From Candidatus Latescibacterota bacterium (GTDB lineage Bacteria; Latescibacterota; UBA2968; GCA-2709665), in assembly GCA_965116875.1 (NCBI GenBank), contig OZ220733.1:1728001-1792000 (forward strand): a stretch of DNA of 64,000 bases. Reading direction: 5' to 3'. A program made the translations under genes and the position numbers. Below the pieces are notes generated by a model. The model ran no database searches. It was not told where the DNA came from and saw only the letters and a list, made by a program, of their open reading frames with translations. Shown here in pieces: positions 16,010 to 52,755 of this stretch; within the stretch, counting starts at the first letter, position 1; every line of letters begins with the position of its first letter.

Positions 16010-16990
16010 TTATCTGGCAGCATTCGTTCGGACCAGCTTCCAGACGTCCGGAAACATGTTGTTGCCCGCCACCATCCAGAGCGCATCGTCGTAGACGAAT
16101 ACACTGGCGGCGTGGCGCGGGGCCCACGGCGTATCCGGCAGTTCGGTCCAGTTCACCCCGTCCGGGCTGTACCACACGTCGTTCCGGTTCCAGCTGCCGG
16201 TCGCCTCGTCCATCGAACGATGGGCCGCCTCGTGAAAGCATCCCTCCATCACCCATAATTTGTCGTCCCACACGCCAACGTCGTGATACTGTCTGGGAGC
16301 CCAGGGCGCCGCACGGGTATGCAATTCCCAGTTGACGCCGTCGGCGGTGCTCCATACGTCGCCGAACATCTTCCGGCTGTTGATACGCGGCGTATCGTAC
16401 GTCCCTCCGCCCAGAATCCAGATCCGGTCCCGAAAAACGGCGCTGCCGCCGATCATTCCGCGTTCTTCCCACGGCGCGTTTTCAACCACCCGGTTCCAGG
16501 TCCGGCCATCCGCCGAATTCCACACGTCGTTGAAAAAGACCTCCTTCTCATCCGCGAATTGGGGGATGGTCTGCCCGCCCATTACCCAGATTCTGCCGTC
16601 GTGGACCGCTGTATAGTGCAAGACCCTCGGGCCCCAGGGCACGGGGTCGCAGATCAGTTCCCAGGCGATGCCATCCGCGCTGCGCCAGACGTCGTTCTGA
16701 TAGTGCCCCTGGTTGCAGTCCCCTCCCACGATCCACATCCGACCGTCATGAACGGCGTAACCGGCCGTGTGCCGCCCCTCCCAGGGCGCCTCCTCGTTCA
16801 CTTCGATCCAGGTTTCGCCGTCGATCGAACACCACACCTCGCTGTTGCAGATGATTGGAAAATTGACCTTGTCACCAGGATTCCACCCGCCCAGCAGCCA
16901 CATCTTGTCCTGAAACACCAGCGCGCCCGCGCCGTCCCGCCCCGCGAAGGCGGCATTTTCCGTTACGCAAATCCATTCGTAATCGGGCAT
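16010..16990 (-). CDS. Kelch-like beta-propeller repeat protein
   Basis: Repeats of [V/M]W[L/I][L/V]GG...NDVWxSxDGxxW...APW. Confidence 0.85.
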   Translation of the reverse strand: MPDYEWICVTENAAFAGRDGAGALVFQDKMWLLGGWNPGDKVNFPIICNSEVWCSIDGETWIEVNEEAPWEGRHTAGYAVHDGRMWIVGGDCNQGHYQNDVWRSADGIAWELICDPVPWGPRVLHYTAVHDGRIWVMGGQTIPQFADEKEVFFNDVWNSADGRTWNRVVENAPWEERGMIGGSAVFRDRIWILGGGTYDTPRINSRKMFGDVWSTADGVNWELHTRAAPWAPRQYHDVGVWDDKLWVMEGCFHEAAHRSMDEATGSWNRNDVWYSPDGVNWTELPDTPWAPRHAASVFVYDDALWMVAGNNMFPDVWKLVRTNAAR

Positions 16991-17006
16991 GAAAACCTCC
17001 TGAATA

Positions 17007-17137
17007 AGGGGAGACGGAAGACGGGAGAGGGTAGAGATTACCTGCCTTGTCAGGTTTCTTCTCGTGCCGCAGGCAAAGAGGAATGAAATATCGGGCGAGG
17101 ATTTCCTCTACCGTCTACCCTCTACCGTCTCCCCGCC
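17007..17137. repeat. E-family element
   Basis: GGGAGACGGAAGACGGGAGAGGGTAGAG...core...CTACCGTCTACCCTCTACCGTCTCCCC. Confidence 0.8.
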
Positions 17138-17143
17138 TTTCTC

Positions 17144-22231: not shown

Positions 22232-22327
22232 CTCGATCTTCCTTGTCGGCAATGGCCGGCTGGACCGCCACCTGGGCCCGTAAACCTACAACGCTTGAAT
22301 TCCGCCATATCCGATGGTATATATAAA

Positions 22328-22530
22328 GCGGGGAGAGGGAAGACGGGAGAGGACCACACCACCTCCCACAACCTGGTGAGACGGGAGCCGGGAGACGGGA
22401 GAGATTACCTGCCTTGTGACGATTCTTCTCGTGCCGGAGGCAAGAAGGGATAAAATATCGGGCAAGGGCTTCTTCTCACGTCTCCCCTCTCCCGTCTCCC
22501 CGCATTTCTTCTACCTTCTTCCTTCTACCT
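22328..22530. repeat. E-family element plus CTTCTAC/CTTCTTC heptamers
   Basis: Core GATTACCTGCCTTGTGACGATTCTTCTCGTGCCGGAGGCAAG with inverted arms. Confidence 0.75.
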
Positions 22531-25869: not shown

Positions 25870-26530
25870 TCGTTAGCTGTCAGCTCTCAGCCGTCAGCTA
25901 AATCCGGTCTACGATACGGACAGGCGATATCGATCCGCGGATGTCCGGTTTTTTGTAGGGGCGACCGGCCGGTCGCCCCTACAGAACAAATCACGCGCGG
26001 TTTTATGCGCAGCCACGAGGATTATCCCTGAAAATGCAACAACAGCGAAGCGAGGCCAGGATGGCCTCGCTACGGTACCATGCATTCACGCAACGGCCTG
26101 CGGGGGCCGCCCCGAAAAGTGTTACCGATGTGCCCGAACAGATGTTACCCTGGGAAACGGTCTACCAAGAGCGGGAAGACGTGAGAGGGGAGAGGGGAGA
26201 GATTGCCTGCGTTATGAGGTTTCTTCTCGTGCCGGAGGCAAGGAGGTGTAACCGATCGGGCAAGGGCTTCTTCTACCGTCTACCCTCTCCCGTCTCACCG
26301 CCTTCGGGCAACCACAAGGGTTGCCCCTACGAATGCAATGACGGCGTTCCGAGGGCAGGATGCCCTCGCTCCGGGGAGCGGAAGACGGGAGAGGATAGAA
26401 GGAAGCGGACCGCGCCGCCCTGGTCTCGCGCCCTCTTTCGTGATCCATTTCTGTATATCCGTTAGCGAATATCCGGCTTCGAGGATGTCATATGGAAAAG
26501 TTATCTAACCTTCTTCCTTTTTCCTTTTTC
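25870..26530. repeat. Repeat mosaic: GCTGTCA heptamers, perfect 30-bp GTAG-REP palindrome (25954-25983), B-type REPs, E element, GGGCAACCACAAGGGTTGCCCCTAC
   Basis: Palindromes read directly; partners occur elsewhere in the window. Confidence 0.8.
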
Positions 26531-31067: not shown

Positions 31068-31395
31068 GGGTAGACGTTAGACGGGAGACGGTAGATGAAA
31101 TGAGTGCCTGTTCGGTCTGTTAACCATATCGACAATTTATACGTAATCGGCACAAGTCATGATTGATATACTTTCTGTCAGTCCTGGCAGTAACGCGATG
31201 TGGCAGAGTTCCATCATCGCGTTCAGGCTCTATCCTTTTTGACCCGCCACTGGACGAGGTAGCGAGGTTCTTTCTCCTACGTCTTACCGAGGTTTGAGAT
31301 GACCCGCCTTGTAGGGCCTCAATTTATGCCGGAGGCATTAAGGTAGAACAAATCGGCAAAGATCTCATCTTCCGTCTACCCTCTCCCGTCTCACC
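31068..31395. repeat. Expanded E-family element between hlyD-like gene and ATPase
   Basis: GTAGACGTTAGACGGGAGACGGTAG...TGCCGGAGGCA...CGTCTACCCTCTCCCGTCTCACCG; the arm includes the upstream gene's stop. Confidence 0.65.
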
Positions 31396-42700: not shown

Positions 42701-42736
42701 AACCACCGGTCCTGGAGAGAGGCCGGTGGTTTTTTT
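42701..42736 (+). terminator. Rho-independent terminator
   Basis: ACCACCGGTC/GGCCGGTGGT stem followed by a T tract. Confidence 0.75.
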
Positions 42737-42752
42737 CATACGACCCTCCGCA

Positions 42753-42888
42753 AGTGGGTAGACGTAAGACGTGAGAGGGTAGAGATTGCCTGCCCGGTGG
42801 GGGTTTCAGTTCGAGCCATCGGCAAACAGGTGTAGCCTGTCGGGAAAGGATCTCATCTCCCGTCTTCCGTCTTACGTCTCCCCGCTTT
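42753..42888. repeat. E-family element overlapping the MFS 3' end
   Basis: The arm AAAAGCGGGGAGACGTAA encodes the last codons KSGET* of the MFS gene. Confidence 0.7.
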
Positions 42889-44038
42889 TAGGTATTTTCC
42901 ATACCAGCAGAACGCCGGCGATCATCAGAGCCGCGCTGACTTCGAATGCCCGCCGAAGGCCATAGGCGTCGCCCATCATACCCAGCAGCAGCATTGCCAG
43001 CCCCCGAAGCGCAAATCCCCCGCCCATATAGATCCCGTTGGCGAACGCCCGGTTCTCCGGGCAGCTTTCCTGCACCATCGCCATGACCACGGGACCCGTC
43101 GACAGCGCGACAAAGCCCAGGACGACCAGGACCGGGAACAGAAACCATCCCTGGCTGTCGAGAAAGACGAAGAGCAGAATGGGCGTCGCGATCATCGAAC
43201 AGCCCAGCACCCGCCTGCGTCCCAGCCTGTCGCTCACCCATCCGCCGATCAGCGCCCCCGCGATGCCCGCGCCTTCGAGGACCGAAAGGGACGCGCCGGC
43301 CAGCCACAGGCTCGCGCCCTCTTCGCTCAGGAACGTGGGAAGGAATGCGGTGAGCGAAGCCATCGTAAACGCGCGGACGAACACGATGCCGGACAAGGGT
43401 ACCATAACGGGCGCCATACGTTTCAGGGCGGACCGCCATGGCAGCGCCCTATAGAACGAAAACGCCTGCGCCGAAACACGCCTCATCCGAAACAACAGTA
43501 CGAGTGAGGCCACTACGCCCGCGGGAATCAGATAGGCCGTTCCGGCAACCCCCCACACGCCAACGACGCTCACGATCAGAATCGGCCCCAGCGTGCGGCC
43601 GAGTTCACCGCACAGCATCCAGATGCCCATGCCGCGACCCAGGTTCGGTCCGGACAGGGTTCCCGCCATCGCCGGTCCAACCGCGTGGAAGGCCGCGGAA
43701 CTGAAGCCGACGATCAACAGGAGCGCGACGAGCGTCGAGTACCCGCCCGCCACGCCGAGCAAACTCATCGCGATGCCCGTGACCGCGGGTCCGAGAATGA
43801 CGAGAAAGCGCAGATTCGAGCGGTCCGCCCGAAGTCCCACGATCGGCTGAAAGACCGACGGCGCCTGTCTCACGACCATCAGCATGCCGGCCTCGGTCTT
43901 GGTCAGAGACATGGTCTGAATGAAGACCGGCAGCAGGGGCGCGAGAAATCCGCTGTACGTATCGTGTACGGCGTGCCCGCCCGAAAGCATGAGCACGTCG
44001 GTGGTCTGGAAACGCTCTTCCTGCCGTTTCTGCGACAT
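42872..44038 (-). CDS. MFS transporter (Fsr/fosmidomycin-resistance-like)
   Basis: HAVHDTY..FLAPLLP, FQPIVGLRADR, SAAFH, GWVSDRLGRR; 12-TM pattern. Confidence 0.9.
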   Translation of the reverse strand: MSQKRQEERFQTTDVLMLSGGHAVHDTYSGFLAPLLPVFIQTMSLTKTEAGMLMVVRQAPSVFQPIVGLRADRSNLRFLVILGPAVTGIAMSLLGVAGGYSTLVALLLIVGFSSAAFHAVGPAMAGTLSGPNLGRGMGIWMLCGELGRTLGPILIVSVVGVWGVAGTAYLIPAGVVASLVLLFRMRRVSAQAFSFYRALPWRSALKRMAPVMVPLSGIVFVRAFTMASLTAFLPTFLSEEGASLWLAGASLSVLEGAGIAGALIGGWVSDRLGRRRVLGCSMIATPILLFVFLDSQGWFLFPVLVVLGFVALSTGPVVMAMVQESCPENRAFANGIYMGGGFALRGLAMLLLGMMGDAYGLRRAFEVSAALMIAGVLLVWKIPKSGET

Positions 44039-44278: not shown

Positions 44279-45652
44279 TTATACGCGTACCCAGTACAGG
44301 TGGTTGTCTATTGTCTCGCCCTCAACCGTGTATCGGGAATCGCCCAGCGTGTAGATGAAGGACGGACGGGCGCCTGGCGGGATGGGATTGGCGCCATTCG
44401 TGCGTTCCAGGGAAGACATAAGCTGACCCTGTTCAGGGTCGAATGCCAGCACCTCACGCGGCGTGAATGTCTCCCCGTAATCGGACGATTCGAGCCAGAC
44501 GATCCGCGAGAGTTCCGGATGGTCGCGCAGCCAGAAGGAGGGCAGGCCATGGATGCCCGGGGCCCAGTTCTCATCCGGGTGCCCCAGGGCAACGATTTGG
44601 GCGAGAATGCACAGGACGTCGTCGGACGTTATGACCGGCTTGAAGGCGAGTACCCCCCAGCCGGGCCAGTGCGACGCCACGGCCTCGCCTAACGGCAGTC
44701 CGCGCCACCTCCCGGCGTCCGGCGTCTTCAGGAAAACGCGACATGGCGTGGGTGTGTGGCGGACGTAGCCGACGTAGGGACGGTCCTTCGAGTCGACGGC
44801 CAGGCCGCAGTGGTGAATGCCGGGCTTGGGGTTGTCGCTCTCGCCCTCCTCCAGCAGGTCAAGCGTTTCCGGCGTTGCCGGAAGCGGAACCGGCGTCCCG
44901 TCGTCCTTCTGCCAGGTGCAGCCGAAGTCGAGGGAACGCATGTAGCCCACGGCCTGGTACAGACCGGCCACGTCGCGTGAGTGCTCCCCCGCATTCGCCC
45001 TGCGCCCCAGGAAAAAGGCCATGCTCATATGCATTGTCTTCCGGTCCGGGCCCCAGGCCACGTCGTTGTTCATGCCGGTGTACCCGGTGAATCGCCGTTG
45101 CCGGGTCACGATCAGGCCGCGGCTTTGCCACGGCTCGGCAGTCGGTTTCTCCCACAATTCCATGCCTTTGTGGTCGCCGTCGCGGGCGAAGAGGTGAAGC
45201 GCGTCATCGGGGCCGCACAGGAGTACGGGATAGGTGTTTCGGCCGAAGGCCTCGACGGAGGTCCAGGCAGACGCATCGTGCGGACGCAGCGATCGCTGGT
45301 ACTGCAGAGGCGAGTTGTGCCCGCCCATGACCATGTGGAGGTAACCCTTGCTATCAACCGCAAGGGTGGGACGGGAATGCTCGTCGACGCCCTCGGCCAG
45401 GATGGGGCCGCCGGTCCACCGGTCCGTTTCATGATCGAGCGTGCGTACCCGTGCGAAGTACCTCTGATCGTACGAGTCCTGCCAGGCAACGTGGGTTTTT
45501 CCGCGGCAGGCAACGATCTTGTTCCCCGGCCCCTGGCTTGCGCGTTCGCCGGCGATCACGGACAGCAAGGCGTCGCCGCGTTTGCGATCGGCAGCGGCAA
45601 ACGGGTCGTCCACGTCGCAGTTCCTGATACGTTCGAACAATTCAGCTTCCAC
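44279..45652 (-). CDS. BNR-4/Asp-box beta-propeller protein
   Basis: DEHSRPTLAVDSKGYLHMVMGGHN, SLDFGCTW, SSDYGETF; GTG start after GGAGG. Confidence 0.8.
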   Translation of the reverse strand: MEAELFERIRNCDVDDPFAAADRKRGDALLSVIAGERASQGPGNKIVACRGKTHVAWQDSYDQRYFARVRTLDHETDRWTGGPILAEGVDEHSRPTLAVDSKGYLHMVMGGHNSPLQYQRSLRPHDASAWTSVEAFGRNTYPVLLCGPDDALHLFARDGDHKGMELWEKPTAEPWQSRGLIVTRQRRFTGYTGMNNDVAWGPDRKTMHMSMAFFLGRRANAGEHSRDVAGLYQAVGYMRSLDFGCTWQKDDGTPVPLPATPETLDLLEEGESDNPKPGIHHCGLAVDSKDRPYVGYVRHTPTPCRVFLKTPDAGRWRGLPLGEAVASHWPGWGVLAFKPVITSDDVLCILAQIVALGHPDENWAPGIHGLPSFWLRDHPELSRIVWLESSDYGETFTPREVLAFDPEQGQLMSSLERTNGANPIPPGARPSFIYTLGDSRYTVEGETIDNHLYWVRV

Positions 45653-45689
45653 TTGCTCTCCTCCCTTGCTGTTCATCGTGCGCGATTTG

Positions 45690-46061
45690 CAATAACCATC
45701 GGCGAAATCTGTCGGTCAGGTGTCGGTACAAGTTGCCATCGCGAGGAAGCGTCTGCGTAAGAAAGCCTGGTGCGGGCATTTCGACATTTCGACACCCTTC
45801 GACAGGCTCAGGGACCGAGCTCAATGCAGGCATGCTTGCTTCGACAAGCTCAGCACAGGCAATGACCACGCGTGGATATGCGATCTTAGACGTCGCTCAG
45901 AACGACATGCTGGCCTATAGTTAAGCACGACGCTTCCCGCTGTCATCCAGAGGAGGCGGAAGTTAAGGTGGGGCGGACATTCCTTTCTGCCCGCATGTCG
46001 ACGAATCGTCCGCGCACAAGTTTGTCTACAAAAGCCATATGCTACACGTTCGAGCGAGAAG
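45690..46061. repeat. D/C/A composite repeat forming the left flank and target of IS copy 1
   Basis: CTTCGACAGGCTCAG, GCTCAGAACGACA, TGTCATCCAGAGG, GGTGGGGCGGACATTCC, GCTACACGTTCGAGCGAGAAG. Confidence 0.85.
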
Positions 46062-46148
46062 TCACTATGTTAAAATGAGTTGAGCCTCAGCTTGTGAGAG
46101 TATACTTTGCCTTTGCCCGTAACAAACACTTTCACAAGGAGGCTCGTG

Positions 46149-47219
46149 ATGGCAAGGTATACCGTTGAAGCGTGGGATGGCAAGGATCTTTTCGTGGGCA
46201 TCGACATGCATCTCAAGCAGTGGCACGTGACGATTCTCAACGAGGATGGGTTGCGACTGTTCTCCAATCGCATCGCAGGCACAGCAGAGGCGATCGATAA
46301 GGTGTTGAGTCGTTATGGCGAAGCGAAAGAGATCTTTGCGGTGTATGAAGCCGGTTATTTCGGTTTCTGGTTATATGATTTTCTTGTCGATATGGGTGTG
46401 TCTGCTTCGGTGACGCCGCCGAGCCTGATCCCGAGCCAGAGTGGGAATCGGGTCAAGACGGATTCCATCGACAGCTTCAAGCTGGCGGATTATCTGAGGA
46501 CGGACCTGCTGGCATCGATCTATGTGCCGACGCATGAAGAGCGGTGCCACCGCCAAGTGAGTCGTCGCCGCCGGCAGTTCATCAAGGATCGGGTGCGTGT
46601 ACAACTACGGATCAAGGCCGAACTGCGGTATATGGGTTTGTATGTGCACGAAGAATCCAGAGGGACGTGGTCTGACAAGTTCGTGACCGCACTGCGTGGT
46701 GTGGACCTGGGGGAGCCGTGTGCGCAGGAAAGCTTCGAGAACATGCTGGAACAATACGATGATCTGTGTGAACTGGTGGGGCGCCAGACGAAAATGCTGT
46801 GGGAGCTTGCGCAAACAGACACGTATCGGGATCGGGTGGCGATCCTGACGTCGATCCCGGGCGTGGGATGCTTGTCTGCCATGGAGATCCTCCTGGAACT
46901 GCAGGATGTGGCGCGCTTCAAGAACGCAGATGCGCTGGCGGCCTACGTGGGGCTGACGCCCGGCCAGCACTCGTCGGGCGAGCACGTGAGGCACGGGCGC
47001 ATCACCCGCCAGGGAAAGCCCATTGTACGTGCGTTACTTACCCAGGCGGCCTGGCGCCTGATCGAGAAAGATCCCGCGATGCAGGAAAAATACGAACACT
47101 TGAAGGTGCGTGCCGGTGGCAAACGCGCCATCGTCGGTGTTGCCAGAATCCTGGTGGGCCGTATGCGCAGGATCCTGCTGAATGGAGAGCCCTATCAGCT
47201 GGGCCTCATCGCCGGGTGA
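46149..47219 (+). CDS. IS110-family DEDD recombinase/transposase
   Basis: VGIDMH, YEAG, KTDSIDS (RuvC-like DEDD); SIPGVG; GLTPGQHSSG (catalytic Ser); AAGGAGG RBS. Confidence 0.95.
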   Translation: MARYTVEAWDGKDLFVGIDMHLKQWHVTILNEDGLRLFSNRIAGTAEAIDKVLSRYGEAKEIFAVYEAGYFGFWLYDFLVDMGVSASVTPPSLIPSQSGNRVKTDSIDSFKLADYLRTDLLASIYVPTHEERCHRQVSRRRRQFIKDRVRVQLRIKAELRYMGLYVHEESRGTWSDKFVTALRGVDLGEPCAQESFENMLEQYDDLCELVGRQTKMLWELAQTDTYRDRVAILTSIPGVGCLSAMEILLELQDVARFKNADALAAYVGLTPGQHSSGEHVRHGRITRQGKPIVRALLTQAAWRLIEKDPAMQEKYEHLKVRAGGKRAIVGVARILVGRMRRILLNGEPYQLGLIAG

Positions 47220-47254
47220 ACACACGGTCGCAACAGATGCCTGCGCACGCACCG

Positions 47255-47425
47255 CTTTTGATCGCGGAGTACAGGGGACGGCGCCTACCGTCTTGTAGAC
47301 CCACAGGGTACTACGTAAGTGAAGTTTGCACGCCCCGTCCCCTATCGCACGGCTCCGGATAAATGACATGTCAGCGCCTGCACCAGGCGACTACGAATAG
47401 TAGATTGGTAGCGTTGCCCCAGCAT
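47255..47425 (+). ncRNA. Putative bridge/seek RNA of IS copy 1
   Basis: Stem GGGGACGG/CCGTCCCC encloses CTACCGTCTT (9/10 match to the target bottom strand); a second loop holds ATAGTAG, matching the donor junction. RNA limits are approximate. Confidence 0.7.
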
Positions 47426-47641
47426 CTGAGGCCATCCAACAGAGAACACCGTACGCCTGGTCCCTACTGCTGTCGTGCGGCAGGGAACCATTCAGGCCTC
47501 AATGACGTTTATTTCGTTCATTCCGACACGCTCGACGAGCGTGTCGGAATGAACGCGTCGCATAGGTACGCATAATGGTAGAGTAACCCCAGCATCTGAG
47601 GCCAACATATGGTCGTTTTCTCTTGACTTTTAACATAGTAG

Positions 47642-48393
47642 ACGGGAGATTCTTCGCTCCGCTCCGAATGACATGATGGCCGATAGCCGAGCACGATGCT
47701 TCGCGCTATCATCCAGAGGAGGCCGGGGTGCAACGTCTAGGAAACCCATCCGTGACACGTAAGACCAGATCGTCAAGCAGACGAGTCCCCCAGGCCGACG
47801 AAGGATCTACTGCAGCATGGGATGATGTCAAAGCGTCTGGCATTCGGTCCGCCAACAAATGCAGCACAATACCGCTTTTGCTTTGACTCCGCTCAGAATG
47901 ACAGACTTTGCAATAACCACTCGCGAAATGTATCGGTCAAGTGTCGGAACAAACGTTCATGCGGAGGAAGCCGAAAGGCAGTCGAAGCCTCCGCGCACGA
48001 GTTTGTCTACAAAAGCCATATGCTACACGTTCGAGCGAGAAGACGGGAGATTCTTCGCTCCGCTACGAATGACATGACTTGCAACAACCATTGGCGAAAT
48101 GAACCGGCCAGATCTTCGCTCCGCTCTGAATGACATGCCGGCCGATCGTCAAGCCCATTGCTTCCCCCTGCCATCCAGAGGAGGCCTGCACACAACGTCC
48201 AGGAATCACATCCGTTACTACGTGAGACCAGATTTTCGTGCAGAGGCGTCCCCAGGCCGACGAAGGATCTACTGCGGCATGGGATCATCCCCCGCGATTT
48301 GCACATGGCGACGCCTGAAAGGCAGCACGAAGACCAAGCGTCCGCGCACAAGTTTGTCTATAAAAGCCATATGCTACGCGTACGAGCGAGAAG
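47642..48393. repeat. Composite D repeat between the two IS copies, containing an empty target (AG core 48041-48042)
   Basis: GCTACACGTTCGAGCGAGAAGACGGGAGATTCTTCGCTCCGCTACGAATGAC. Confidence 0.85.
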
Positions 48394-48480
48394 TCACTAT
48401 GTTAAAATGAGTTGAGCCTCAGCTTGTGAGAGTATACTTTGCCGTTGTCCATAACAAACACTTTCACAAGGAGGCTCGTG

Positions 48481-49551
48481 ATGGCAAGGTATACCGTTGA
48501 AGCGTGGGATGGCAAGGTTCTTTTCGTGGGCATCGACATGCATCTCAAGCAGTGGCACGTGACCATTCTCAACGAGGATGGGTTGCGACTGTTCTCCAAT
48601 CGCATCGCAGGCACAGCAGAGGCGATCGATAAGGTGTTGAGTCGTTATGGCGAAGCGAAAGAGATCTTTGCGGTGTATGAAGCCGGTTATTTCGGTTTCT
48701 GGTTATACGATTTTCTTGTTGAAATGGGTGTGTCTGCTTCGGTGACGCCGCCGAGCCTGATCCCGAGCCAGAGTGGGAATCGGGTCAAGACGGATCCCAT
48801 CGACAGCTTCAAGCTGGCGGATTATCTGAGGACAGGCCTTCTGACATCGATCTATGTGCCGACGCATGAAGAGCGGTGCCACCGCCAGGTGAGTCGTCGC
48901 CGCCGGCAGTTCATCAAGGATCGGGTGCGTGTACAACTACGGATCAAGGCCGAACTGCGGTATATGGGTGTGTATGTGCCCGAAGAATCCAGAGGGACGT
49001 GGTCTGACAAGTTCGTGACCGCACTTGGCGGTGTGGACCTCGGGGAGCCGTGTGCGCAGGAAAGCTTTGAGAACATGCTGGAACAATACGATGATCTGTG
49101 TGAACTGGTGGGGCGCCAGACGAAAATGCTGTGGGAGCTTGCCCAAACAGACACGTATCGGGACCGGGTGGCGATCCTGACGTCGATCCCGGGCGTGGGA
49201 TGCCTGTCTGCCATGGAGATCCTCCTTGAGCTGCAGGATGTGGCACGCTTTGAGAGCGCAGATGCGCTGGCGGCCTACGCGGGGCTGACGCCAGGCCAGC
49301 ATTCGTCGGGTGAGCACGTGAGGCACGGGCGCATCACCCGCCAGGGGAAACCGATGGTGCGTGCGTTACTCATCCAGGCGGCCTGGCGCCTGATCGAGAA
49401 AGACCCCGCGATGCAGGAAAAATACGAACGCATGAAGGTGCCTGCCGGTGGCAAACGCGCCATCGTCGGTGTTGCCAGAAACCTGCTGGGCCGAATGCGC
49501 AGGATCTTGCTGAATGGAGAGCCCTATCAGCTGGGCCTCATCGCCGGGTGA
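48481..49551 (+). CDS. IS110-family DEDD recombinase/transposase (copy 2)
   Basis: Same motifs as copy 1; intact frame with roughly 15 amino-acid differences. Confidence 0.95.
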   Translation: MARYTVEAWDGKVLFVGIDMHLKQWHVTILNEDGLRLFSNRIAGTAEAIDKVLSRYGEAKEIFAVYEAGYFGFWLYDFLVEMGVSASVTPPSLIPSQSGNRVKTDPIDSFKLADYLRTGLLTSIYVPTHEERCHRQVSRRRRQFIKDRVRVQLRIKAELRYMGVYVPEESRGTWSDKFVTALGGVDLGEPCAQESFENMLEQYDDLCELVGRQTKMLWELAQTDTYRDRVAILTSIPGVGCLSAMEILLELQDVARFESADALAAYAGLTPGQHSSGEHVRHGRITRQGKPMVRALLIQAAWRLIEKDPAMQEKYERMKVPAGGKRAIVGVARNLLGRMRRILLNGEPYQLGLIAG

Positions 49552-49586
49552 ACACACGGTCACATCAGATGGCTGCGCACGCACTG

Positions 49587-49756
49587 CTTTTAATCGCGGA
49601 GTACGGGGACGGCGCCTCCCGTCTTGTAGACCCTCAGGGTACTACGTAAGTTGAGTTTGCACGCCCCGGCCCCTATCGCACGGCTCCGGATAAATGACAT
49701 GTCAGCGCCTGCACCAGGCGACTACGAATAGTAGATTGGTAGCGTTGCCCCAGCAT
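49587..49756 (+). ncRNA. Putative bridge/seek RNA of IS copy 2
   Basis: CTCCCGTCTT (49616-49625) is the exact reverse complement of target AAGACGGGAG; ATAGTAG at 49728-49734. Confidence 0.72.
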
Positions 49757-49972
49757 CTGAAGCCATCCAGAAGGGAATACCGTACGCCTGGTCCCTACTG
49801 CTGTCGTACGGTAGGGAACCATTCAGGACTCAATGACGTTTATTTCGTTCATTCCGACACGCTCGACGAGCGTGTCGGAATGAACGCGTGGCATAGGTAC
49901 GCACAATGGTAGAGTAACCCAAACATCTGAGGCCAAGATATTATCCTTTTCTCTTGACTTTTAACATAGTAG

Positions 49973-50405
49973 ACGGGAGATTCTTCGCTGCGCTCCGAGT
50001 GATTTGACTCGCAACAGCCATTGCCGACGTGAACCGGCCAGATCTTCGCTCCGCTCTGAATGACATGCTGGCTAATAGCCGAGTACGATGCTTCCCGCTG
50101 TCATCCAGAGGAGGCCTGGGTGCAACGTCCAAGAAACACATCCGTTACGCCTGAGATCAGTTTTTCACGTAGAGAAAGCCCCAGGCCGACGAAGGATCTA
50201 CTGCGGCATTGGATGATTGCAAAGCGCCTGGCATTCGGTCCACCAACAAATGCAGCACAAAACCGCTCTTGCTTCGACTTCGCTCAGAATAACACGCTGG
50301 TCCATAGTCAAGCGCATTGCTTCCCGCTGTCATCCAGAGGACTTGCCCTGAGCCTGTCGAAGGGGCCTGGGTGAAGGTGGGGCGGACATTCATGTCTGCC
50401 CGCTC
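49973..50405. repeat. D/C/A composite repeat ending at the permease 3' end
   Basis: Same modules as the other composites. Confidence 0.85.
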
Positions 50406-50409
50406 TCAC

Positions 50410-52755
50410 TCATACCGCAGCGCGTCCACCGGATTCGCGGGCTGCCCGGATAGTCTGGATGACTACGGTCAGTTGCACCGCAAGCAGCAACAATACACCC
50501 CCCAATAAAAAGGTGGGAATGTCCGGTCCAATCCGGTACGCGAAATCCTCTAACCATCGTTCCGTTGCGTAATACGCCGCGGGGAACGCGAAGAGACTCG
50601 CAATGACCACAAGCTTTACGAAGTCCCTGGATACCAGGACGACAATCCCGGATCCACGAGCGCCCAGGACCTTTCGGATCCCGATCTCCTTGGTCCGCCT
50701 GGACACGGCAAGAGCCGTGAGCCCAAACGCTCCGAGGCAGGCGATTATGACCGCAATCAGCGCACCATACCCGATAATTCGGTTCCATCGCTCTTCTTTT
50801 CTGTACTGCCCGTCCACTTCATCGTCGAGAAACGAAAACCGAAACGCACGGCCTGGCGCAACCTCGCGCCACTTCTCCTCGAGGTACGCCAGCGTACCAG
50901 GGATATCATCACCGCGGATCCTGACGAGCATTTGGTAGGATGCGAACGGGCTCAGGGTCAACACCGCTGGTCCGATCGTGTGGTGCAGGGAGCGCACATG
51001 GAAGTCCCTTACGACTCCGATAACCGCAACATCCCGCTTGTTCATGCGCAGCATTCTGCCAACGATTGGCATGTCCCAGCCCAGGTGTTTGACCAGGGCC
51101 TCGTTCACGATAATGGACGCGTGTGAAGCAGGTTTCAGCGAATCGAAGTCCGAACCTTCCAGAAGTGAGATATCCATCGTCTTAAGAAAGTCGTAGCCGA
51201 CGTTTACTTGCTCGACGTCCATTTTCTCGCCCTCGTGCTCAATAATCCCCTTGTACCTCGTCCTGTTGCTTAGCGCGTGGAGGGTGGTTGTAATCGCCAG
51301 CACATTGGGGTTCTGCATCAACTCGTTTTTGTACACCTCGTCTAGACGCGAGTCCGCCTGGAGCGGGTCCGATGTCGTAATGCGCAAGAGGTGTTCACTG
51401 TCGAAGCCCAGAGGTTTCGTCTTCAGGAAATCAAGTTGCCGAACCATCGCGAGCGCACTGATAACCATAAAGACGGAAAGCGCGAATTGCACCACGACCA
51501 GCGCCCGCCCGAAACGGTTCGGCCCTCCCAGCCTGATGCGGCCTTTCAAGGCCGAAGCCGGCTGAACACCTGACAGCACGAAGGCCGGGTAGACGCCTGC
51601 GGCCAGTCCAACGGCCGCAGCCAATCCAAGCAGAACGGCCGTGCCCGAACCGTCCGCCTGATCGAACAGAGCGATGTCTTTCGCCACAATGTCTTTGAAA
51701 GCCGGCAGGAGGAATTCCGCCAGGCCCGTCCCGGCTAACAGTGCCAGAACGCTTAATAGCATCGATTCTCCTAGAAACTGCATCACCAGTTGAATTCGAG
51801 ACGCACCAGTCACCTTTCGCATCACCACTTCCCGGTCGCGTGAGAATGACCTGCCCACGGCAAGGGTAACGTAGTTCACACAGGCGATCGTCAGGACGAG
51901 AAGGACGATACCGAGAAGAATATAAGAGAATGCCGGATTTCCTGCTCCCATTGGACCCCGGCTACCCCGGTTGAGATGCATTTCCAGTAGTGGCAGGAGG
52001 CCAATCGAGCGGTCCAACTGTTCTACCATCCATGGCGGGAGCGATTTTCGGAGCAATTGCGAAAACCGTTCGTTGAGTTCCGATGTACGTTCTTTTTTCG
52101 AGACCATTACGTACGTTTCGACATCACTAATATTCCAACCCCTCGTGTAGCCTCTGCTGGCAAAAGGCGCGAGGAAATCGAACCTGATGCTTGAGTTCTT
52201 GGGGGCGGACTTGGCAATGCCGGTAACAACGAAATCCCGCACGGCCACCGGAGGACCCGATAGATTCACGGAAAGGACTTTGCCCAGGGGATCTTCGTCG
52301 CCAAAATATCTACGCGCCGTGGACTCAGCGATCACTACGTTGTATGGATCGTCCAGCACAGTAGCCGGGTCGCCTTTCAGCAGGGGAAAGGTGAACACCT
52401 CAAGGATCGCCGGATCGGCGAAGTAGAAACTTCCCCTGAGTGACCGGTCCCCATCTTTTACAGATGAAGCGCCCCTGCCAATCCTGACGGACCGGACGTC
52501 CGAGAATGCCTCTTCAAGCGCCGGTCCCAATGGATCGGGAGTCTCACCTCCCGGTCCCATCCGGGATTCGACATAGACCCTGAATATTCGATCGGCGTTT
52601 TCGTGAAACGCGTCGTAGGTCCACTCTTGACGGACATACAGGAACGCCAGCACGCAGAACGCTATCGCGATGCCCAGACCCACCACGTTAATCGCGGCAT
52701 AGAGCGGATGCCGCAACAGATTGCGCCAGGCCACCTTGAGATAATTCCAGAACAT
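50410..52755 (-). CDS. MacB/FtsX-family ABC permease, paralog 4 (2-nt deletion alters the last 10 residues)
   Basis: Close to paralog 2; the canonical ANPVDALRYE* (stop at 50406) is out of frame. Confidence 0.9.
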   Translation of the reverse strand: MFWNYLKVAWRNLLRHPLYAAINVVGLGIAIAFCVLAFLYVRQEWTYDAFHENADRIFRVYVESRMGPGGETPDPLGPALEEAFSDVRSVRIGRGASSVKDGDRSLRGSFYFADPAILEVFTFPLLKGDPATVLDDPYNVVIAESTARRYFGDEDPLGKVLSVNLSGPPVAVRDFVVTGIAKSAPKNSSIRFDFLAPFASRGYTRGWNISDVETYVMVSKKERTSELNERFSQLLRKSLPPWMVEQLDRSIGLLPLLEMHLNRGSRGPMGAGNPAFSYILLGIVLLVLTIACVNYVTLAVGRSFSRDREVVMRKVTGASRIQLVMQFLGESMLLSVLALLAGTGLAEFLLPAFKDIVAKDIALFDQADGSGTAVLLGLAAAVGLAAGVYPAFVLSGVQPASALKGRIRLGGPNRFGRALVVVQFALSVFMVISALAMVRQLDFLKTKPLGFDSEHLLRITTSDPLQADSRLDEVYKNELMQNPNVLAITTTLHALSNRTRYKGIIEHEGEKMDVEQVNVGYDFLKTMDISLLEGSDFDSLKPASHASIIVNEALVKHLGWDMPIVGRMLRMNKRDVAVIGVVRDFHVRSLHHTIGPAVLTLSPFASYQMLVRIRGDDIPGTLAYLEEKWREVAPGRAFRFSFLDDEVDGQYRKEERWNRIIGYGALIAVIIACLGAFGLTALAVSRRTKEIGIRKVLGARGSGIVVLVSRDFVKLVVIASLFAFPAAYYATERWLEDFAYRIGPDIPTFLLGGVLLLLAVQLTVVIQTIRAARESGGRAAV

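Follow-up and report, generated by a model that had tools for sequence, protein, structure and literature searches.

We analysed a 64,000-nucleotide (nt) stretch of the genome of a Candidatus Latescibacterota bacterium (positions 1,728,001-1,792,000 of contig OZ220733.1, assembly GCA_965116875.1; hereafter the window), which carries two copies, c1 and c2, of an insertion sequence (IS). On sequence-level criteria both are IS1111-type elements of the IS110 family. The 3′ non-coding region of each contains a predicted guide RNA, and the two guides differ at the base that should face position +5 of the right flank of the insertion site. The genome holds six copies of this element (c1-c6), each with an intact open reading frame (ORF) of 356 amino acids, and the guide base is complementary to +5 in five of the six, the sole exception being c1. 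The best explanation of this pattern, and in our judgement a highly probable one, is that point mutations of the guide retargeted the element within the known bridge/seek-RNA mechanism.

The guide is represented by CTACCGTCTT (47285-47294) in c1 and by CTCCCGTCTT (49616-49625) in c2, as given in a preliminary description of the window, and the sole difference between them is A at 47287 versus C at 49618. The 9-mer of c1, CTACCGTCT, occurs six times in the window, compared with 0.20 occurrences expected from shuffles. These are located within the IS itself, at 17108, 17122, 23949 and 26273, all four of which had already been assigned to arms of a repeat family designated E, and at 31086 (minus strand), which was added in this study. 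The sequence CTCCCGTCT is present 21 times (0.59 expected), and ACGTAAGACG, also ascribed earlier to the E arms, was found there at 42762 (plus strand) and 42868-42877 (minus strand). The opposite arm of the loop differs between the copies as well (GTAAGTGAAG at 47315-47324 in c1, GTAAGTTGAG at 49646-49655 in c2). The left flank of c1, ending in ...CGAGCGAGAAG (46051-46061, plus strand), belongs to a second repeat family, D. The right flank (ACGGGAG; 47642-47648, plus strand) has a one-base mismatch to the element's own guide, at +5; that c1 does not match its own site had thus been correctly recognized.

Both guides lie in a target-binding loop module (47273-47343 in c1; this and the following RNA features are on the plus strand). 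It is predicted to consist of an outer stem formed by 47273-47283 and 47331-47343, with an inner hairpin at 47295-47314; the order of parts is outer stem, 5′ arm CCUACCGUCUU, hairpin, 3′ arm GUAAGUGAAGUUUGCA and closing stem. The 5′-arm guide of c1, CU[A]CCGU-CU-U (47285-47294), is complementary to the top strand AAG^ACGG[T]AG (the caret marks the insertion point), and, in the register obtained from the alignment of relatives, base 47287 pairs with right-flank base +5. The 3′-arm guide, GUAAGUGAAG (47315-47324), has the sense of the left flank plus the core AG, and its bases 47321-47322 correspond to left-flank positions -4/-3. In c2, the 5′-arm guide CU[C]CCGU-CU-U (49616-49625) matches the right flank ACGGGAG (49973-49979) at every position, and the 3′-arm guide GUAAGUUGAG (49646-49655) mismatches the left flank (..GAGAAG) at -4 and -3. 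A donor-binding loop module of the same design follows at 47355-47408. Its 5′ arm includes UGAC (47364-47367), which, judged by eye only, is complementary to the core G plus the left end TCA, and its 3′ arm includes AUAGUAG (47397-47403), identical to the right end of the element.

This architecture and register are derived from relatives of the element, whose transposases, found by searches of genomes and metagenome contigs, are 43-64% identical to that of c1; together with G058, 20 RNA regions were aligned. The contig searches with the transposase yielded closest proteins in this same range of identity and no further copies of the same element. RNAalifold applied to the 20 RNAs gave four helices, corresponding to the two modules. 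On the shared fold 88.8% of the alignment cells are paired, compared with 32-45.5% after displacement of the partners by 1-3 columns, and 15 of the 22 pairs show compensatory changes on both sides. In the relatives, the 5′ arm contains the 9-mer complementary to the core AG and seven right-flank bases, without mismatch in 5 of 14 and with one mismatch in 4 of 14. The corresponding left-guide 9-mer (left flank plus AG) forms the last part of the 3′ arm and is followed immediately by (G/U)UUGC or UGUGC; the mismatches number at most one in 4 of 11 relatives, two in 3 and three in 4. The 3′ arm ends in AG just ahead of (G/U)UUGC or UGUGC in all 20 aligned RNAs, and the donor-loop sequence GAATAG[T/C]AG tracks the right end CATAG[T/C]AG in 17 of 17 relatives. 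These relatives have unrelated targets, and their loops correspond, in a constant register, to the flanks of the respective element. The position of the top-strand match 5′ of the bottom-strand match, together with the flank matches, places 47287 opposite +5 and 47321-47322 opposite -4/-3.

The comparison of guide allele with flanking sequence across all genomic copies, which the preliminary description had proposed, was then possible for the whole family. The copy c1 (allele A; the reference) is inserted in ..GAGCGAGAAG^ACGGGAGATTCTTCGC; c2 (95.2% identity to c1) carries allele C and has flanks of the c1 type, as does c6 (88.9%, allele C), whose left flank has C for G. The copies c3, c4 and c5 (99.9%, 99.7% and 99.5% identity, respectively) all carry allele A and are inserted in ..AGAGGGAAG^ACGGTAGA.. 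sites. The right flank is therefore ACGGTAG for c3, c4 and c5, and ACGGGAG for c1, c2 and c6. Three of the four A-allele copies thus occupy ...GGGAAG^ACGGTAG sites in heptamer arrays, and both C-allele copies occupy ...AGAAG^ACGGGAG. The c1-type site is the D repeat, and the sites of c3-c5 lie inside the degenerate heptamer arrays of the E family; the alternative named earlier, that all copies would be found in D-type sites irrespective of allele, does not describe this genome.

Beyond a shared repeat of ~100 bp, the flanks of c3, c4 and c5 show no resemblance, which indicates three separate insertions; segmental duplication as the source of these copies was rejected on the same observation. 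It was also considered for c1 and c2. Their flanks have diverged like any two D repeats and the empty D site between them is more similar to the flank of c1 than the flank of c2 is; separate insertion thus appears likelier than segmental duplication.

Genome-wide, there are 15 free GAAGACGGTAG and 53 free GAAGACGGGAG sites. If the copies were indifferent to allele, the chance of three landings in sites with T at +5 would be roughly (18/74)^3 = 0.014, occupied sites included. Of the 53 free GAAGACGGGAG sites, 10 lie in D repeats, 32 in heptamer arrays and 11 elsewhere, and no D repeat has ACGGTAG. This bears on the suggestion of a retargeting between the D and E families. One half of it stands, in that the A allele, with ACGGTAG absent from D repeats, is limited to E arrays; the other half does not, as the C allele is not specific to D, and the change is better described as a shift between heptamer variants. 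The three occupied T sites are all of the AGG-GAAG class, which numbers 7 sites with these included; the ACG-GAAG class, also of 7 sites, is not used. This preference agrees with A and G at -7 and -6 of the left guide.

The E family is a composite repeat, in which two inverted arrays of degenerate heptamers surround a conserved core of ~70 bp (..GATTACCTGCCTTGTGAGG..GGCAAGAAGG..CGGGCAAGG..). The heptamer units include GGGTAGA, CGGGAGA, CGTAAGA, CGGAAGA and GGTGAGA. Copies of the repeat are located at 16980-17140, 22320-22520, 26240-26400 and 42730-42900 of the window, and many more occur genome-wide; the sequence AAGACGGNAG is present 156 times in the genome, compared with ~43 expected from base composition. 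The D repeat (..CAAAAGCCATATGCTACACGTTCGAGCGAGAAGACGGGAGATTCTTCGCTCCGCT.CGAATGACA..) forms local arrays at 45885-46061, 47642-48393 and 49973-50340 of the window and at genome positions 1784262-1792914. Three D target sites, two occupied and one empty, lie within 2.4 kb in the window, and four more are found just downstream in the genome.

A further test of the allele-flank relationship was provided by G010, a draft genome of the same genus, in which contigs break at the IS, so that its interior is missing and its flanks are readable. The left flanks, four in all, share the ending GTGAG (GGTGAG in one, CGTGAG in three), and three of the four right flanks are ACGGAAG. Only 6 of the 93 free TGAGACGGNAG sites of G010 have A at the variable position, and the chance of at least three A flanks among four is ~0.003. 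These flanks led to the prediction of a U-allele right guide, CUUCCGUCU, and of a left guide ending in UGAG. The metagenomic runs X1 and X2 contain 0.94 and 0.85, respectively, of the sampled words of a G010 flank, and their contigs were compared over the interval equivalent to 47200-47680. Each run yielded a single IS-length contig (1593 and 1600 nt, respectively), with a depth ~4x that of the flank contigs, which fits four copies. In both contigs the changes are 47287 A>T, 47321 G>T and 47322 A>G, in agreement with the prediction at all three positions. Run X3 yielded an IS contig of the c2 type, with 47287 A>C and the same TG, which extends 7 bases beyond the end of the element into ACGGGAG. 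Such contigs show the presence of an allele, not its absence, and in run X4 coverage was limited to the flanking repeat (4 of 29 bins), which is uninformative on the IS. With three A-allele copies in ACGGTAG sites of the E family and a predicted U allele subsequently found, the natural retargeting of the guide suggested in the preliminary description is supported.

The runs that contain the sister-genome flank (among X1-X14) are labelled as sponge or marine metagenomes; no habitat is inferred from this for the genome of the window. Among 14 other genomes of the genus, matches to the element were obtained only in G010 (ends only) and G008 (two truncated remnants). The G008 remnants (L002, 1501-1654, and L022, ~1490-1579) are both decayed and both lie within heptamer arrays. 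One consists of bases 1-153 only, directly after ..GACGTAAG^, and this left-flank type (TAAG) is intermediate between GAAG and TGAG. The other comprises ~100 nt of the 3′ end of the gene and breaks inside the stem of the target loop.

Based on these data, we propose that an RNA with two internal loops, derived from the 3′ non-coding region, directs the transposase of this six-copy family. In the first loop, (i) the 5′ arm (CUNCCGUCU) would pair with the top strand of the core AG and seven right-flank bases, and (ii) the 3′ arm (..G[GA or UG]AG), which has the sense of the left flank and core, would pair with the bottom strand. The second loop would read the element's own joined ends. Point mutations at the right guide (C, A, U) and at positions -4/-3 of the left guide (GA, UG) would then have redirected daughter copies to the heptamer targets ...GAAG^ACGGGAG, ...GAAG^ACGGTAG and ...TGAG^ACGGAAG. 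By analogy, the transcript would be made and would act as in ISEc11 and IS621.

Several observations weigh against this proposal. The copy c1 carries the A allele yet occupies a G site, and c2 carries the UG left guide yet follows GAAG, which places its mismatches at the two positions adjoining the core. All three G-site copies are in D repeats, although these provide only 13 of the 56 GAAGACGGGAG sites (probability ~0.013), and this preference means that pairing over 11 bases does not fully account for site choice. The left guide matches its flanks contiguously only over GAAG or TGAG (5-6 of 7 positions overall), compared with 5-8 contiguous positions in the relatives, and, since it is one base longer than in most of them, its distal register is uncertain: there are 9 nt in the left arm between the conserved CG and UUUGC and 8 in most relatives (L026 also has 9). 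Five of the 14 relatives, a group with a GGCGGCU arm, have at least two mismatches to the right flank. One of the four right flanks of G010 (ACGGTAG) does not fit the U allele, and the alleles ascribed to this genome come from metagenome contigs, from which rare variants have been dropped and in which another strain is conceivable. A promoter scan found no sigma-70-like promoter. The z-scores of single-sequence folding (-1.14, 0.03 and -0.58) are unremarkable, which is the reason why relatives were collected and aligned. Finally, the copies are few and related, and the probabilities given above are rough.

The misfit of c1 can be accounted for in three ways. Tentatively, we favor mutation of c1 in place, after which it would have founded the A lineage. 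It is also possible, though somewhat more doubtful, that c1 was inserted with a mismatch or by the RNA-transposase complex of a sister copy. Since the copies hardly differ in their ends and donor loop, any copy's complex could carry any other copy. It is rather unlikely that gene conversion overwrote an older resident copy at the c1 site. In the six-copy comparison c1 has no private substitution; its status as founder was nevertheless not established from the substitutions, given that sites 46464 and 47443 are phylogenetically incompatible and that c5 (L073) contains a c2-like patch. In this patch, five clustered sites equivalent to 46502-46556 are in the c2 state and the remainder of c5 is c1-like; it is probably a gene-conversion tract between copies ~1.6 Mb apart. 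Recombination among the copies thus blurs the order of events. The same three routes are candidates for c2, whose UG allele is not a private decay, being shared by X1, X2 and X3. The left arm of c6, CGA(U)GAAG, would fit the D flank CGAGAAG over 7 bases with a bulged U, and c6 is the only copy that could fit D beyond GAAG. A general reading of the left guide with a bulged U was considered on this basis and left undecided: it suits c6, and it leaves unaccounted for the use by the A lineage of AGG- over ACG-class T sites.

Published work on related elements offers further factors. Excision substrates are read across both RNA loops (PMC13626964), the donor flank of ISEc11 had to match the RNA (PMC11187229), and ISPpu10 is reported to require a hairpin in the target DNA besides pairing (10.64898/2026.03.19.712850). 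Any of these could bear on the misfits of c1 and c2 and on the preference for D repeats. More speculatively, the heptamer arrays may form a connected target landscape, in which nearly every one-base change of the guide would meet cognate sites and a new specificity evolves base by base, and c1 and c2 would be either founders or trans-delivered cargo. Such a landscape could be traversed by changes of the right guide (C to A or to U) and of the left guide (GA to UG, perhaps via UA).

Three other explanations of the allele-flank fit were weighed. If the A/C difference were neutral drift outside target choice, the fit would stem from shared descent or chance. There are only six copies, of which c3-c5 lie within 33 kb, are 99.5-99.9% identical and are not fully independent, and both c1 and c2 occupy sites that do not fully match their own guides. 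We nonetheless consider drift improbable: in separate lineages each of the three alleles goes with the flank base complementary to it, the prediction of the U allele from flanks preceded its detection, the flanks of c3-c5 are unrelated beyond the ~100-bp repeat, and 9 of the 14 relatives, with unrelated targets, hold the cognate 9-mer in the same arm with at most one mismatch.

A different register of the left guide goes back to the preliminary description, which had matched the opposite-side GTAAG to E arms. In this register the guide would be ACGUAAG with its own AG as the core, and c1 would be aimed at ACGTAAG^ACGGTAG arms. The presence of ACGTAAGACG in E arms and of 13 TAAGACGGTAG sites in the genome speaks for it, as does the truncated G008 copy inserted directly after ..GACGTAAG^, although the guide of that copy is lost. 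We judge it very unlikely. In the 11 relatives with readable left flanks, the last bases of the arm are those that match the flank, which in c1 makes GUGAAG (47319-47324) the core-adjacent bases and GUAAG only a distal part. Despite the 13 available sites, none of the three E-site insertions is at ..GTAAG^ (or at any TAAG^); all are at GGGAAG^. Furthermore, the change GA>UG at 47321-47322 goes with ..TGAG^ flanks in four of four G010 copies, which fixes the register. The least credible explanation, to which we attach hardly any weight, is that the transposase protein reads the heptamer directly and that the "guide" is a fragment of the target carried in the element. The use of D sites by three of three G-site copies would suit it, and so would the structural DNA requirement reported for ISPpu10 (10.64898/2026.03.19.712850), but across the relatives the loops vary with the target and the stems are kept by compensatory changes, and single-base changes of the guide track single-base changes of the flank.

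All features examined at the level of sequence agree with the assignment of the element to the IS1111 group and of its predicted RNA to the bridge/seek RNAs. The copy c1 (46062-47641, plus strand) is 1580 bp in length. Its junction was defined by the unoccupied D-type target GAGCGAGAAG^ACGGGAG (48033-48049, plus strand) located between c1 and c2; owing to the core AG its bounds are ambiguous, and 46060-47639 is equally possible. A comparison of the empty site (GAGAAG^ACGGGAG) with the occupied ones revealed no target duplication except for the AG shared by the left flank and the right end. The copy c2 (48394-49972, plus strand) comprises 1579 bp. Both transposase genes (46149-47219 in c1 and 48481-49551 in c2, plus strand) are intact, and their products differ by 18 amino acids. 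These proteins match the Pfam domains PF01548 (DEDD_Tnp_IS110; 3.5e-19 and 1.4e-19) and PF02371 (Transposase_20; 5.2e-27 and 5.8e-28) above the curated cut-offs. The traits defining the IS1111 group were taken from PMC11187229 and PMC11208160. The C-terminal motif GL-P----S(t)G is present in the transposase translation as GLTPGQHSSG. The element also has subterminal inverted repeats of 12 bp (within the 7-17 bp of the group) with short terminal extensions: ACTATGTTAAAA is located 2 nt inside the left end and TTTTAACATAGT 2 nt inside the right end. In c1, the non-coding sequence comprises 422 nt downstream of the gene (47220-47641) and 87 nt upstream of it (46062-46148). An Rfam scan of 45500-50500 (E<=1) detected no bridge-RNA family and only a chance match to a long non-coding RNA (lncRNA) family.

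The 3′ non-coding region is ~170 nt longer than that of the nearest relatives, L033 and L004 (window 47409-47605), and a direct repeat of ~28 nt (GGTAGCGTTGCCCCAGCATCTGAGGCCA and GGTAGAGTAACCCCAGCATCTGAGGCCA) flanks the additional sequence on both sides. This sequence contains a perfect palindrome of 41 nt (47515-47555, plus strand). Selection on the hairpin is suggested by c5, in which two substitutions in the palindrome (47524 C>T and 47546 G>A) compensate each other.

The element shares many features with the IS1111 seekRNA elements ISEc11, ISPa11 and ISKpn4 (Siddiquee et al. 2024, PMC11187229), including the DEDD transposase and the GL-P----SG motif. As in the ISEc11 group (PMC11187229), there is a long downstream non-coding region, the inverted repeats are subterminal, and within the RNA the part that matches the top strand by complementarity precedes, in the 5′ to 3′ direction, the part for the bottom strand, with an overlap of the two at the insertion point. 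Guide-swap experiments with ISEc11 redirected its insertion, and natural redirection is also known from the comparison of ISEc11 with ISXne4, whose proteins are 28% different and which have 3 of 13 target bases in common (PMC11187229). In contrast to that pair, the retargeting proposed here, known from sequence alone, involves single bases among copies 95-99.9% identical in one genome plus its sister. The target differs as well, being composed of degenerate heptamer arrays and a second repeat. With the bridge RNA of IS621 and other IS110 elements (Durrant et al. 2024, PMC11208160; Hiraizumi et al. 2024 and 2026) it has in common the target and donor loops with one arm per strand, the shared core dinucleotide, and a covariation of guide and target, which across natural elements was described with 0-2 mismatches (PMC11208160). 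Differences from IS621 are the location of the RNA at the 3′ end, the reversed order of the arms, a core of AG instead of CT, a right guide of 7 nt plus the core, and a left guide that is only weakly matched. ISPpu9 and ISPpu10 of Pseudomonas putida (PMC12288879) likewise belong to the IS110 family, have AG at both ends and target dispersed repeats (REP), but they represent another subgroup and use other repeats.

The mechanism itself is already known; what this locus contributes is the fine-grained allele series among near-identical copies, together with resident copies that misfit their own sites. In a limited literature search, we found no description of a within-genome series of guide alleles, although this element or a close one may be listed in the ISfinder-wide bridge-RNA tables of PMC11208160 or among the target logos of PMC11187229.

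RNA-guided recombinases of the IS110 family are under development as genome-writing tools, and what is known of the natural rules that govern their specificity, their tolerance of mismatches and their use of RNA in trans comes mainly from IS621 and a few others. The locus described here constitutes a natural series of three right-guide and two left-guide alleles with matching flanks, plus two misfit residents. Such minimally different pairs of RNA and target are suited to tests of (i) single-base discrimination, (ii) the role of the donor flank in excision and (iii) cross-talk between guides in IS1111-type elements. If c1 and c2 are trans-delivered cargo, the guide RNAs of co-resident alleles would act in trans in nature. 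The series also shows how such elements can switch their target without passing through a non-functional intermediate.

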